Source of the DNA: Candidatus Altarchaeum sp.
GTDB lineage: Archaea; Altiarchaeota; Altiarchaeia; Altiarchaeales; Altiarchaeaceae
NCBI GenBank assembly: GCA_018260615.1
Contig: JAGWDQ010000037.1
Location: forward strand, 1 to 10,986
DNA length: 10,986 nucleotides
Direction: 5' to 3'
Positions 1,600 to 10,986 of the stretch are shown here, piece after piece. A program made the translations under genes and the position numbers. The notes beneath the pieces were generated by a model. It was not told where the DNA came from, did no database searches, and saw nothing but the letters and a program-made list of their open reading frames with translations. Within the stretch, counting starts at the first letter, position 1. Every line of letters starts with the position of its first letter.

Positions 1600-3021
1600 T
1601 TAAAAATCCTCCAAATCAAAAGCAAAGAATTCCTTTAAATTTTCCTTTCCTTCAATCTTTTTTGCAAAAATTCCAAATTTTTCAGTCCTGTTTTCATTAT
1701 TCCACTCCACAAATTTTGCCTTTTCCTTCAGGTTATTAATAATTCCTGTTGCTTCCTGTTCATCTACATCTTTCCATTTGCACTCAAAAAAATAAATTTC
1801 TCTTTTGTTCGCATTTGTGTCCTCATTTATAGCAACAAGGTCAATCTCAACTTCTTTTCTTTGTCCGTTTTCCCGGTAATGTCCCCACCATCTTCCAACT
1901 TCATTAAAATTAATGTTTGTTTCTCTTAATGCTCGTTTTTTGATTAGGACTTCCCTGCAAATTTCTTCATATATTTTACCGACATAAGTGTTAAACTCCA
2001 GCGAAATTTTTTTCATAATATTTTCGGTATTTCCGATTTCCACATCGCTTTTGTTTGGATATACAAATCTAAACCAGAATCTGAAGAAATTATCATCTAT
2101 GAAATACAATGTCTTTTTTGATTGTACTTTTTTTTCTGTTATGGGATACTCTTTTTTAACTAAAGAAAGTCTTTGCAATGTTTCAAGATATTTTGAAAGA
2201 TCTTTTGGATTCATAAATGTTTTATCTGCAATTTCCACAACCCTTGTAGCACCATTTGCTATTGCAAATAAAATTGAAAAATATGTTGAGGGCTCTCTTA
2301 ATTCTTCCTTCAGGCACATCGCAATTTCTTCATTAAGAAAACTACCTTTTTTCAATATCTTTTCCTTAATGTTTTCGTAAACATTTATTGAATCGTCAAA
2401 TTGCAACAAGTAAGCAGGAATATTTCCACAAACAGAAAATGCTTCTATAAAACTTTCACGGTTATATTTCGGAAGAAAATATCCCGAATCAAAAAAGCTT
2501 AAAGGCGTAACTTTCCACTGCCCCGTCCTTCTTCCGTAAAGCGGGGAACTATAACTTAAGACCCCTTTTTCCATCATACTTATTGAAGAACCATTTAAAA
2601 TAAGAAAAATTTCCTCATTTGATATATATTCATCAATAATTTTTTGAAATATTGAAGGGATGGAATCGTCCTTTTCCACTAAATACGAAAATTCATCTAT
2701 TGCTATGACTATTTTTTCCATCCTTCTTTCGTTTATCCTTTTTACTATGTATTTAAACACATTCTCAAAATTTTTTACTTCCGGAGAAATATCATTGAAG
2801 AATTCCGCTGCTTTTGTGGCAAATTCCTTCGCATTTATTAATGTCCCTCGTTTATCCGCAAGAAAATAAATATGCTGCTTATCTTTCATAAATTCTTTTA
2901 TAATTTCTGTTTTTCCAACCCTTCTTCTTCCATATATGACAATAACCTGCAACCCTTCTTCTTTGTACTGTCGCTCTAAAAATTCTGTTTCTTCCTTTCT
3001 ATTTATAAATTTTCTCATCAT
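1600..3021 (-). CDS. Archaeal AAA+ ATPase (COG1672 / ATPase_2 + DUF234) with winged-helix region and C-terminal PD-(D/E)XK-like domain
   Basis: N-terminal KFINRKEE, Walker A GRRRVGKT, Walker B IAIDEF, SPLYGRRT, YFIDDNFFRFWFRFVYPN, and C-terminal GRWW..EIDLVA..FECKW. The start may be the second ATG (3018). Confidence 0.9.
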   Translation of the reverse strand: MMRKFINRKEETEFLERQYKEEGLQVIVIYGRRRVGKTEIIKEFMKDKQHIYFLADKRGTLINAKEFATKAAEFFNDISPEVKNFENVFKYIVKRINERRMEKIVIAIDEFSYLVEKDDSIPSIFQKIIDEYISNEEIFLILNGSSISMMEKGVLSYSSPLYGRRTGQWKVTPLSFFDSGYFLPKYNRESFIEAFSVCGNIPAYLLQFDDSINVYENIKEKILKKGSFLNEEIAMCLKEELREPSTYFSILFAIANGATRVVEIADKTFMNPKDLSKYLETLQRLSLVKKEYPITEKKVQSKKTLYFIDDNFFRFWFRFVYPNKSDVEIGNTENIMKKISLEFNTYVGKIYEEICREVLIKKRALRETNINFNEVGRWWGHYRENGQRKEVEIDLVAINEDTNANKREIYFFECKWKDVDEQEATGIINNLKEKAKFVEWNNENRTEKFGIFAKKIEGKENLKEFFAFDLEDF

Positions 3022-3065
3022 TTTCTGATATTTTAAAACATTCGGAATATAAATATAATAATTAC

Positions 3066-3085
3066 AATCCGAAAATAAAATTTAA
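3066..3085. repeat. 20-bp perfect direct repeat, copy 1
   Basis: aatccgaaaataaaatttaa, identical to 3358-3377. Confidence 0.9.
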
Positions 3086-3163
3086 GTATTTGTTTAGCAC
3101 CACAGAGGCACAGAGAAAATAATTTTAAGTTTGATTTTTGTCTTTATTAGTCCTTTAAAAAAA

Positions 3164-3314
3164 CCTCACACAAAGTCACAGAGCATATATCTCATAGTTC
3201 TTTGTGTCTTTTTCAAAATCAATAGATTTTGAAAATCTCCGAGCATTTCAAACTTGTTTGAAATACACGAACGGAGTGAGCGTAAGAGCGAGGTGACTGT
3301 GTCTCCGTGTGAGG
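3164..3314. mobile_element. Putative MITE/REP-like composite palindromic element
   Basis: Imperfect terminal inverted repeats cctcacacaaagtcacag (3164-3181) and ctgtgtctccgtgtgagg (3297-3314), 15/18. Internal perfect hairpins at 3210-3235 (11-bp stem) and 3245-3264 (9-bp arms). GC-richer than the flanks. Partial copies at 9111-9161 and 10676-10723. The repeats are seen directly; mobility is inferred. Confidence 0.6.
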
Positions 3315-3357
3315 AATTACATTTTAATTATCTAAACAATTACAAATTTAAAATTAA

Positions 3358-3377
3358 AATCCGAAAATAAAATTTAA
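3358..3377. repeat. 20-bp perfect direct repeat, copy 2
   Basis: aatccgaaaataaaatttaa, identical to 3066-3085. Confidence 0.9.
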
Positions 3378-3392
3378 ATTTTTTAATGCCGG

Positions 3393-3419
3393 GAAACATA
3401 AGAAACATAAGAAACATAA
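3393..3419. repeat. (gaaacataa)x3 tandem repeat
   Basis: Perfect 9-mers at 3393, 3402 and 3411, just downstream of the trpA stop. Confidence 0.9.
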
Positions 3420-3444
3420 ATTTAAATAAATTTCAAAATTTCAA

Positions 3445-4233
3445 TCATTTAATTTTTTCTTTTGTTGCCTTCCTTAACTCTTTAACGAAATTTTCCAGCT
3501 CTTTCAAATCATCAGTCCTGTTTATTATTGCACTTCCGACAATTGCACCGTCAACCTTGTCTTTTATCTCATTTATATGATTTGGATTTGAGATTCCGAA
3601 TCCGATTGCCAATGGAACACTCTTTCCCGTATCCTTTAAAACATCCTTTACATTCTCAATAAATTTCGGGTCAATATTTAAATTTTCCCTTGCTCCGGTA
3701 ACCCCCAGCACAGAAATCAAATACAAAAATCCGCCTGCGTTTTTAACGATTTTTTTAAGTCGGTCTTTCGTTGATGTTTGTGCGAGCAGAAATATTAAAT
3801 CGGTCTCATACCTGCTGCATAAATTTAACAATTCATCACTTTCTTCAACAGGCAAATCCGGAATAATAATTCCTTTAATTCCATTCGCTTTACATTTTTC
3901 AACAAATTTTTCAAGCCCGTACTGATAGAGCAAATTATAATAAGTCATACAGACGAGTGGAATATTTTCATCTTTAACTTCGCCGCAAAATTTAAAATAA
4001 ACATCTGTGTTCATTCCGTTCTGTAATGCTCTTTCGCTTGCCTGTTGTATGGTCGGACCATCGGCAATAGGGTCGGAAAACGGCAGTCCGAGTTCAATAA
4101 TATCTGCATTTTTCTTTAAAATTCGGACAATTTCTTTGCTCTTTTCAAAGTTCGGGTCGCCTGCACACACATAAGCAATTAATGCACACCTTCCTTCCTT
4201 CTCTGCTTCTTTAAATTTTTCTGAAATTTTCAT
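3445..4233 (-). CDS. trpA: Tryptophan synthase alpha chain
   Basis: AYVCAGDP, IELGLPFSDPIADGPTIQ (catalytic Glu and Asp), MTYYN, IIPDLP, GVTG, GFGIS, DGAIVGSA. Confidence 0.97.
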   Translation of the reverse strand: MKISEKFKEAEKEGRCALIAYVCAGDPNFEKSKEIVRILKKNADIIELGLPFSDPIADGPTIQQASERALQNGMNTDVYFKFCGEVKDENIPLVCMTYYNLLYQYGLEKFVEKCKANGIKGIIIPDLPVEESDELLNLCSRYETDLIFLLAQTSTKDRLKKIVKNAGGFLYLISVLGVTGARENLNIDPKFIENVKDVLKDTGKSVPLAIGFGISNPNHINEIKDKVDGAIVGSAIINRTDDLKELENFVKELRKATKEKIK

Positions 4234-9106: not shown

Positions 9107-9161
9107 GTGTCATTTTAAACATTTGTTTAAAATACACGAATGAAATGAGCGTAAAAGTAAG
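9107..9161 (+). repeat. Decayed copy of hairpin B plus tail of the 3244-3292 element, overlapping the queE start
   Basis: 41 of 51 aligned columns match 3244-3292. Perfect arms attttaaaca/tgtttaaaat (9112-9133), extendable by gtgt/acac. Confidence 0.8.
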
Positions 9162-9843
9162 AGAAATATTCTCAAGTATTCAGGGAGAAGGAATATATGT
9201 CGGAAGAAGGCAAATTTTTGTGAGGTTTGCAAAATGTAATCTGGACTGTGATTATTGTGATACAGCCCACAAAAGAGATGCAAAATTTTGTATGGTTGCA
9301 GGAAAGAAAAAATTTTTGAAAACCGCCGATGATATTGTAAATGAAATTAAAAATTTGGACACAAAAGATGTTTTTAGCATTTCATTAACCGGAGGAGAAC
9401 CGCTAATTTATACATCTTTAATCAAACAAATTCACAAAAAAACAGGCATCCCTCTTTATCTTGAAACAAATTCAACACTTCCGGAAAAAGCAGACGAAAT
9501 TAAAAATTTAATCACTTATGCTGCCTGCGGGCTCAAATTAAATTATCCGAAATTTTATAATGACTCTTTAAAGACGATAGAAATTTTAAATCACTGCCTG
9601 AAATCCGGAAATTTATTTGTTAAGGTTGTTATAACCAAAAATGTTGATGTCGGTCAAATTGAAGAACTAACAGGGGACTTAAAAAATATCGGTGATTTAC
9701 CTTTGGTTTTACAGCCGCAGACAGGAATAAAATGGGACAATACCTATAAAAACACATTATTAACAATGAGTGAAACAGCAGGTAATTTTTTAAAAGAGGT
9801 TAGAATAATTCCTCAAACACATAAATTTTTGGGCTTTGAATAA
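9145..9843 (+). CDS. queE: 7-carboxy-7-deazaguanine synthase (radical SAM), preQ0/archaeosine pathway
   Basis: EIFSSIQGEG, FVRF, CNLDCDYCDT (CxxxCxxC), LTGGEP, LETN, LQP, PQTHK. Confidence 0.92.
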   Translation: MSVKVREIFSSIQGEGIYVGRRQIFVRFAKCNLDCDYCDTAHKRDAKFCMVAGKKKFLKTADDIVNEIKNLDTKDVFSISLTGGEPLIYTSLIKQIHKKTGIPLYLETNSTLPEKADEIKNLITYAACGLKLNYPKFYNDSLKTIEILNHCLKSGNLFVKVVITKNVDVGQIEELTGDLKNIGDLPLVLQPQTGIKWDNTYKNTLLTMSETAGNFLKEVRIIPQTHKFLGFE

Positions 9844-9861: not shown

Positions 9862-10908
9862 TTATATAACTTTACATTCCCCTAAAATTTTTTCCGCATC
9901 TTTTTCCAGATTAAATTTATTAAATATTGTATACCTGTCTCTAACTTTAGGTGCAAATTTTAACGCCTCAATTATATATTCCTTATCTATTCCGAGTTCC
10001 TTTGCATTTGTCGGTGCCTCAACATCTTTTAATGCCTCTTTTATTTCTTTCCAGCCTCCTTCGTTTTTATGTGAATAAATTTCATGCAAATAGGCAGAAA
10101 TAATTGTTCCGACACCGCATTGTTCCCCGTGTAACGCATGCTTAAATTTATATTTTTCCGAAAGCACATCTAATGCATGACTGAATAAATGTTCCGAGCC
10201 GGATGAAGGTCTGCTTGACCCGGCAATTGCCATTGCCACACTGCTGCTGAGCAATGCCTCAACCAGAATGCTGATATCAGAAAAAATTTTCTTTGAATTT
10301 TGCATCACAATTTCCGCACTCATATTTGAAAGTGAAGCAGCATAATCGCCAAAGTATTCATTTTTTTCATCCCTTGCCAATTTCCAGTCAAGCACAGCGG
10401 TAAAATTTGAAATCGCATCTCCAAATCCGGAAGCGGTTAAATTTTTCGGAGCATTTGAAATTATTCTAATGTCGGCTATGACTGCGAGAGGAGAATTTGT
10501 TTTAACCGAAACACCTCCCCCGATCGAAGCATAAGGAGATGCAATTCCATCATGAGATGCAGCAGTCGGAATACTTATAAAAGGCAGTTTATTGTTAAAC
10601 GCATAAATTTTTGCTTTGTCTATTGTGCTTCCGCCGCCGATGCCGCAGACAAAACCGAAATTTTGATTTTTAATATTTTCAAAATCAACAGATTTTGAAA
10701 ATCTCCGAACGATAGTGAGGTGAATTTCTTCATCAGGATTTACAAATTCCCCTCCGATTTCACCCTGAATAATATCGGCAAATTTTTTGGTGAAATTTCC
10801 GGAAAAAATCAAAGGACTTTTTAAATTTAACTCATCGCAGACATTCTTGATTTCATAAATTGCTCCTTCTCCGACAATTACCTTGCGGGGTAATTCTATT
10901 TTTTTCAT
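9862..10908 (-). CDS. egsA: sn-glycerol-1-phosphate dehydrogenase (archaeal lipid backbone)
   Basis: GIGGG..ID, PTAASHDGIASP, GFGD..SNFTAVLDW, SSRPSSGSEHLFSHALD, HGEQCGVG. The start is placed at MKKIELPRKV (10908) by family resemblance, not at the ORF-track ATG (10977). Confidence 0.95.
   Translation of the reverse strand: MKKIELPRKVIVGEGAIYEIKNVCDELNLKSPLIFSGNFTKKFADIIQGEIGGEFVNPDEEIHLTIVRRFSKSVDFENIKNQNFGFVCGIGGGSTIDKAKIYAFNNKLPFISIPTAASHDGIASPYASIGGGVSVKTNSPLAVIADIRIISNAPKNLTASGFGDAISNFTAVLDWKLARDEKNEYFGDYAASLSNMSAEIVMQNSKKIFSDISILVEALLSSSVAMAIAGSSRPSSGSEHLFSHALDVLSEKYKFKHALHGEQCGVGTIISAYLHEIYSHKNEGGWKEIKEALKDVEAPTNAKELGIDKEYIIEALKFAPKVRDRYTIFNKFNLEKDAEKILGECKVI
10676..10723 (+). repeat. 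Intragenic copy of hairpin A plus tail of the 3210-3296 element, inside egsA
   Basis: 10676-10710 matches 3210-3244 at 33/35. Perfect stem ttttcaaaatc/gattttgaaaa. The tail cgaacgatagtgaggtga resembles 3268-3296. Confidence 0.9.
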
Positions 10909-10986
10909 AATTTTATTTATAAAGTTTTTCTGTAACTTCTCAATAAGTTGTGGTAAATAAATTTTGTAACTGCTCATTTTATAAAA

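Follow-up and report, generated by a model that had tools for sequence, protein, structure and literature searches.

Introduction

Candidatus Altiarchaeum is an uncultivated archaeon and a dominant carbon fixer of subsurface waters. In one genome of this genus a short palindromic segment lies between an ATPase gene and trpA (positions 3210-3296), and parts of it recur inside egsA and at the start of queE. The question raised by this locus is what kind of sequence would be found in a spacer, in a coding region and on a translation start within so short a distance. The window, by which we mean the whole stretch of DNA that was analysed (10,986 nt), is contig C37 of an archaeal assembly of 2.23 Mb in 148 contigs with 33% G+C (genome G000, 87% complete). 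An initial annotation had described the segment as the full copy of a modular element composed of a hairpin A, the linker ctccgag, a hairpin B and a tail C, with A and C present in egsA and B and C at queE. It had offered two explanations for this arrangement, namely an apparently undescribed REP/MITE-like family, or a chimeric small RNA or protein-binding array related to both genes. Here, we describe a family of two-hairpin units to which all of these sequences belong, together with its distribution, its insertion sites and the explanations that might account for its spread.

In addition to trpA, queE and egsA (Table 1), the window includes genes for a DUF11 protein, an archaeal ATPase and an S7/EF-2/EF-1alpha/S10 cluster, and egsA is single-copy genome-wide. 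No tRNAs were found in the window, and an Rfam scan of its whole length gave no match up to E = 1. The ATPase gene (1600-3021, minus strand) encodes a PF01637 protein with a DUF234 or MJ1010-like C-terminal domain; this family is the largest paralogous group of the genome, with 14 paralogues (for example, G000 C40:8009-9163).

Results

Unit design and copy number

A blastn search of positions 3210-3296 against the whole genome returned well over 100 matches, several of them full 87-nt copies on other contigs, so the family is real and extends far beyond the three copies of the window. When all copies were sorted by their tails, the repeating entity was found to be a unit of about 40-50 nt (range 38-56) made of two adjacent hairpins. 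The first, hairpin 1, is AT-rich with a usually perfect stem of 8-13 bp, the sequence of which varies while pairing is kept. Hairpin 2 is conserved and imperfect. Specifically, it consists of the invariant core C-G-A-R-C, a loop of 3-4 nt and then G-Y-G-A-G. Two base pairs form the inner stem, a tandem G.A / A.G follows, and the outer stem has four positions. The main subtype (A) has a conserved T.T in this outer stem; the B subtype has C-G at the same position and an A.C mismatch at the neighbouring one. The core motif of hairpin 2 identified at least 373 units in the 2.2-Mb genome, compared with 16-24 in shuffled genomes, which excludes a family of only three copies.

Many units are located at contig ends. 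The possibility that one contig-end repeat was the edge of a long autonomous element was rejected, as that repeat ends after approximately 170 nt and is another short composite.

Structural conservation

Both hairpins covary strongly, which bears out the earlier suggestion that the structure of the element matters. At the R-Y position of hairpin 2, 349 of the 373 units have a Watson-Crick pair (A-T in 237, G-C in 112; other in 24), and one outer pair occurs as all four Watson-Crick types (C-G 180, A-T 133, G-C 11, T-A 9), which counts by subtype also bear out. Hairpin 1 is found directly upstream in 321 of the 373 units, with 87 different arm sequences and 248 perfect stems. In an alignment of 42 units with pairwise likeness of at most 80%, 88% of cells pair (72% in shuffles) and both partners vary at 11 of the 16 pairs. 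Its covariation score of 0.358 was reached by none of 500 shuffles, which gave 0.10, and controls with slid partners gave 0.01-0.09. G.T wobble pairs are nearly absent from the same alignment. This near-absence, along with the lack of orientation bias relative to genes that is detailed below, suggests that the units act as DNA rather than RNA. A flipped form of the hairpin-1 loops was looked for among the units, and none was found.

In terms of folding energy, nearest-neighbour models predict that hairpin 1 folds strongly and hairpin 2 weakly, so that the evidence for hairpin 2 comes from covariation. A covariance model built from 42 units other than the window's three copies recovered each of those copies when run on the window, and the same scan also matched the split host unit described in the next section (Table 1).

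Anatomy of the composite at 3210-3297

Sequence comparison upheld the individual repeats that had been reported for the window. Hairpin A recurs at 10676-10701 with one change, at a loop position; hairpin B (3245-3264) recurs at 9112-9133, where a C-G pair has become a compensated T-A at 9116/9129; and all three copies lie on the plus strand. This shared orientation carries no meaning, since distant units genome-wide agree in 72 cases and differ in 81. The scheme of A, linker, B and tail C as separate modules did not hold and is replaced here by the nesting of whole two-hairpin units. On this comparison, the "full copy" comprises a pair of units from the same family, a B-type inside an A-type. 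The B-type unit, of 39 nt (3245-3283 or 3246-3284), occupies the hairpin 2 loop of a 48-nt A-type unit. The linker ctccgag corresponds to the outer unit's hairpin 2, of which it forms the 5' arm, and "tail C" is two tails joined, the hairpin 2 of the inner unit being followed by the 3' arm of the outer hairpin 2.

The A-type unit occurs uninterrupted on contigs C13 and C97, with a 4-nt loop at the nesting point, and the empty-site paralogue at C97:1649 indicates a 1-nt overlap for the inner insertion. The inner B-type unit is also found alone many times in genome G001. Moreover, the 88-nt composite (3210-3297) is itself inserted in a larger repeat, which is present without the insertion on C60 and C26, each with one TGTGTCT (at 49952-49958 and 10369-10375, respectively) rather than the two seen in the window. 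Energy folding of the composite pairs the outer 5' arm with the inner loop instead; this fold was set aside, as covariation backs the unit model.

The GC-richer cassette that hosts the composite is bracketed as a whole by direct repeats at 3060-3091 and 3352-3383 (29 of 32 positions identical) and sits between the ATPase gene and trpA. The bracketing repeats look like a long target duplication or the mark of a site-specific cassette insertion.

Table 1. Coordinates of units, associated repeats and neighbouring genes in the 10,986-nt window
Feature	Position	Strand	Basis
Host repeat cassette, GC-richer, mosaic of other repeat families	3074-3359	.	blastn of 2901-3500 against the genome
Direct repeat TGTGTCT (7 nt), left copy; right copy at 3298-3304	3203-3209	+	single copy at empty sites on C60 and C26
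Hairpin 1 of outer A-type unit; perfect AT-rich 11-bp stem, 4-nt loop	3210-3235	+	sequence; predicted DNA hairpin; model match 3208-3243
Outer hairpin 2, 5' arm and first loop base; inner unit inserted here	3236-3245	+	uninterrupted copies on C13 and C97
Inner B-type unit, 39 nt; boundary ambiguous by one A	3246-3284	+	model match 3244-3285, 49.5 bits; empty-site paralogue C97:1649
Outer hairpin 2, remaining loop and 3' arm	3285-3297	+	continues the interrupted outer unit
trpA	3445-4233	-	window gene
B-type unit at queE start	9111-9154	+	model match 9111-9154, 56.7 bits; alignment of queE upstream regions
queE	9145-9843	+	window gene
egsA	9862-10977	-	window gene
Plain A-type unit in egsA, in frame, about 16 extra residues (HLTIVRRFSKSVDFEN)	10675-10724	+ (gene -)	model match 10674-10724, 67.7 bits; absent from congeners

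Units in egsA, queE and other genes

At the unit, egsA carries 45-51 extra nucleotides in frame, and all three congeneric orthologues (84-85% identical by tblastn) are without them. In the AlphaFold model of this protein, residues 83-100 have pLDDT values below 50 and the flanks are at approximately 90, a low-confidence stretch between confident flanks that marks the insert as a loop added to an intact fold. The longest egsA open reading frame also begins with 23 codons that have no counterpart in orthologues and are of low confidence in the model; the true start is probably the methionine at residue 24.

With respect to queE, the unit was inserted just after the old GTG start codon, the frame of which is now closed by a stop codon. 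The 3' arm of hairpin 2 opens with the ATG at 9145, such that the unit now supplies the start codon. The start region is uninterrupted in G001; in G002, a unit tail is kept at the same place and the start is GTG. The pair that closes the hairpin 2 loop at queE (9141/9145) is T-A, the family norm being C-G. As the A of the ATG is the 3' partner of the T at 9141, the change that created the ATG is compensated in this single case.

Among long open reading frames genome-wide, at least 14 genuine units are read in frame: those in egsA and in one tnpB copy, and at least 12 in further long open reading frames. With few exceptions these units lie in the orientation whose three frames are all open, and they are read in two frames. 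Coding copies that are exclusively in frame are what purifying selection on random insertions would leave.

Genomic location and orientation

The range of sites first proposed for the family, namely intergenic, promoter and coding, proved accurate: 84% of units lie in the non-coding 17% of the genome (outside long open reading frames), one sits on the queE start, and the in-frame copies just described lie within genes. In spacers between co-directional genes, 89 units are co-oriented with the genes and 77 opposed. Unit density per kb is 0.74 in convergent, 0.72 in tandem and 0.54 in divergent spacers. Units that are no more than 300 nt apart have the same orientation in 100 cases and differ in 25, and head-to-tail arrays with periods of 47-48 nt are found on C111, C15, C124 and C23. 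Arrays of five or six units were noted at G000 C111:5970-6206, C15:4902-5144 and C124:1490-1780, and the 48-nt arrays are open in one frame and resemble open reading frames.

Mobility and insertion sites

Comparison of filled and empty sites shows that units have reached new positions, both in this genome and across species. A paralogous empty site was identified for 96 units at 69 distinct sites; the insertion events are not all independent, as many of these empty sites are paralogous repeats. For example, one of the six copies of a tnpB element has a clean 48-nt unit in frame, flanked by a repeated 5-mer. In unambiguous cases the flank overlap at empty sites is 0-7 nt, mostly 1-5, with no single mode, and the overlapping bases frequently form an AT-rich match with the start of the unit itself. 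Such variable overlaps are unlike the fixed duplication made by a DDE transposase, and short AT-rich overlaps could equally reflect microhomology-driven, enzyme-free insertion.

Loops of other units contain 17 of the 69 sites (nine in hairpin 2 and eight in hairpin 1), and unit loops constitute well under 1% of non-coding DNA. Most of the other insertion sites are inside other repeat families. Perfect stems surround 17-36% of insertion points, compared with 21-39% in shifted controls, which is no enrichment. We therefore claim a loop preference for recognised units only, as it is seen when the host units are recognised by their motif.

Distribution among genomes

A DNA search detected the family in each of the four Altiarchaeum genomes, and 27 further genomes of the class gave no match. 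Counts of the A-type hairpin-2 motif were 269, 152, 77 and 56 within the genus; across 37 additional members of the class they were 0-14, near the level of a reversed-pattern control. Consistent with these counts, covariance model R1 reached its scoring cap in the four genus genomes and gave no match in 55 of the 56 other genomes searched. The REP/MITE-like family that had been supposed from the window's three copies is thus borne out, with hundreds of copies in four congeneric genomes.

The lone outside-genus R1 match is one perfect unit in Altiarchaeales WOR_SM1_SCG, a genome of another family of the class (L154:4992-5036, the same as L077:1501-1545); it could have arrived by transfer, be a relic or stem from contamination of the bin. 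A 17-mer of hairpin 2 also occurs in many bacterial public genomes, where the model indicates chance matches, real units being confined to Altiarchaeales records. Separately, a viral contig of 47% G+C (IMG/VR IMGVR_UViG_3300046780_000453; L176:9958-9989) contains a perfect 23-nt A-type hairpin 2 inside an open reading frame and without hairpin 1. An identity of 23 nt is unlikely by chance, and the contig may be a virus or mobile element of Altiarchaeum.

Search for a mobilising enzyme

A Y1/HUH or DDE transposase had been suggested as the partner acting in trans, and none came to light in Y1, Y2 and IS66 searches. The Y1 family PF01797, which covers RAYTs and IS200 TnpA, had no match in the four genus genomes, and control genomes were matched; because the genus genomes are 65-87% complete, the absence of Y1 is not proven. 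A Y2 search of this genome gave no match, a result of little weight as the control genomes also gave none. No IS66 transposase was found in this genome. Multi-copy open reading frames of the genome were likewise screened for transposases and none was found, these frames encoding ATPases, STAND NTPases, Bro-N and similar proteins.

The genome contains nine TnpB open reading frames, and no TnpA was found. Its only multi-copy insertion sequence is a tnpB-only element of 1.35 kb with 14-nt inverted-repeat ends, present in six copies of 91-96% identity (G000 contigs C13, C24, C42, C69, C70 and C119). The tnpB elements were considered as parents of the units and rejected: the ends of the multi-copy element are unrelated to the units, and the single-copy tnpB genes have no definable ends. 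One IS110-type gene, on C73, has no link to the units.

Discussion

Overall, we consider it likely that the units are selfish, non-autonomous mobile mini-elements of DNA, each made of two hairpins, which are abundant in one genus and, among the genomes of the class that were searched, almost confined to it. With respect to how they move, hairpin 2 would be what a trans-acting enzyme recognises, and folded single-stranded DNA is probably the form in which the unit moves or is recognised, in a manner comparable to REP/RAYT or IS200/IS605. The filled and empty sites show that units insert with no target duplication of fixed length and often within or next to the hairpins of other repeats, of which 3210-3297 is a nested example, and within genes only frame-keeping copies are seen, as in egsA. 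Orientation and spacer-density counts gave no sign of service to neighbouring genes.

A more specific version of this proposal, which we regard as doubtful, is that a structure-specific enzyme outside the Y1-HUH group reads the tandem-G.A/T.T hairpin and places folded single strands of 40-50 nt at exposed hairpins with no staggered cut. If such a system exists, the units would be among the smallest mobile elements known.

A different possibility is that the units spread with no enzyme of their own, as hairpin DNA that escapes flap processing or prompts template switching at replication forks, and so generates tandem copies and, occasionally, copies at distant sites of microhomology. The junction overlaps of 0-7 nt with their AT-rich matches to the unit 5' end, the head-to-tail arrays on C111, C15, C124 and C23 and the failure to find a transposase all fit this explanation. 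We nonetheless judge it unlikely, as whole units with sharp, reproducible ends are found at many unrelated sites that include unique coding DNA, and near-confinement to one genus is not expected of a general replication error. Moreover, the mismatches of hairpin 2 are kept beside pairs that covary, which suggests recognition by a protein.

Selfish mobile elements must also be weighed against sequences that serve the host, whether as sites for nucleoid or regulatory proteins, as hairpins that end or stabilise transcripts, or as movable ribosome-binding cassettes. REP/BIME elements of E. coli have acquired such host roles, and in the present family the conserved structure, a 3' arm that ends in a Shine-Dalgarno-like heptamer and the queE start codon supplied by one copy are all compatible with a similar function. 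However, the units show no orientation bias with respect to flanking genes (89 versus 77) and have similar density across spacer types, and G.T pairs are not favoured. Insertion into genes and into each other, together with presence or absence between close species, is the behaviour of selfish DNA, and a host-serving role is accordingly quite improbable as the explanation for the family.

Finally, a functional tie of 3210-3296 to egsA and queE, as a chimeric small RNA or an array of protein-binding sites, is exceedingly improbable. The idea was prompted by the sequence in common with egsA (33 nt) and with the start of queE (about 40 nt). It is rejected by the genome-wide census, given that the same modules stand hundreds of times beside unrelated genes, that the egsA and queE copies are lineage-specific insertions and that the Rfam scan gave no match.

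In terms of significance, Altiarchaeum genomes are unusually rich in small repeats, and the likely mobile family described here shows how a genome can be reshaped by very short hairpin elements. Units lengthen essential enzymes by a peptide segment, the product of the single-copy egsA being one example, and can replace a translation start, as at queE. They also break assemblies, as reflected in the many units at contig ends, and regions that contain them will be misread by gene callers and binning tools; the covariance model can be used to mask them. How small, transposase-free mobile repeats move is a question that dates from the 2011 work on Haloquadratum. The units are a good case in which to pursue it, because they depart from MITEs, REPINs and PATEs on the comparisons given below and the searches brought no transposase to light.

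Comparison with known systems

The closest analogues of the units are REP/BIME sequences, the PATE and SMR elements of Haloquadratum, and the palindromic elements of Rickettsia, and among these PATE and SMR come nearest. The broader class of MITEs resembles the units in being small, non-coding, multi-copy, taxon-specific and mostly intergenic. In contrast to MITEs, however, the ends of the unit are not complementary, an AT-rich arm facing the GC-richer 3' arm of hairpin 2, and there are thus no terminal inverted repeats. In addition, no fixed target-site duplication was seen in the 69 comparisons of filled and empty sites, and no parent transposon with matching ends was found in this 87%-complete genome. 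A census published in 2024 reported that Ca. Altiarchaeum hamiconexum has the top MITE density among archaea, at 146 per Mb, and gives no anatomy of the elements (PMC11602168). The initial description of the family as undescribed therefore stands with respect to its anatomy, of which we found no description, and is qualified by the very high MITE density already on record (PMC11602168). Of particular interest in the family are the very small unit without a visible transposase, its conserved mismatched hairpin, its loop-directed nesting and its in-frame and start-codon insertions in housekeeping genes.

REP/BIME sequences and the REPIN-RAYT systems of E. coli and Pseudomonas resemble the units as short palindromes of imperfect pairing that number in the hundreds, lie mostly between genes and form mosaics. 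As in the units, compensatory changes keep the structure of REP/BIME sequences, which are thought to be handled as single-stranded hairpins. Unlike REP/REPIN systems, the units have no accompanying RAYT or Y1 gene in the four genomes (65-87% complete) and no conserved 5' GTAG. Unit clusters are arranged head to tail (100 same versus 25 differing) rather than as the inverted doublets of REPINs. Further differences from REP/REPIN sequences are that each unit consists of two unlike hairpins, that units nest in loops and that in-frame copies are found in genes.

The palindromic elements of Rickettsia are about 100-150 nt long, against 48 nt for the unit, and palindromic coding repeats of Methanocaldococcus jannaschii were reportedly described by Suyama et al. 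in 2005. Both resemble the units in that an in-frame peptide segment is added and the gene is left intact. They differ in that the units contribute 16 codons against about 30-50, are probably unrelated in sequence and are mostly intergenic, and the insert in egsA, set against these coding repeats, is predicted to be disordered. The Rickettsia elements, which lie in frame in protein genes, are those of Ogata et al. 2000 and Claverie and Ogata 2003 (cited in PMC11602168).

The PATE and SMR-A elements of Haloquadratum walsbyi are transposase-free and without target duplications, and their mobilisation has been called "enigmatic" (PMC3119063). A PATE reduced to its termini can be as short as 52 bp, and PATE palindromes match the ends of resident IS605-type elements (PMC3119063). 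The units likewise lack inverted terminal repeats and a fixed target duplication and have near-terminal palindromes. They differ from PATEs in that the multi-copy tnpB element of this genome has unrelated ends and that no TnpA was found. SMR-A elements, of about 110 bp with terminal inverted repeats, insert in palindromes of other mobile elements (PMC3119063). The units differ from these in size (38-56 nt) and in having no terminal inverted repeats, and share with them insertion into the palindromes of other elements (17 of 69 sites in unit loops) with no target duplication of fixed length.
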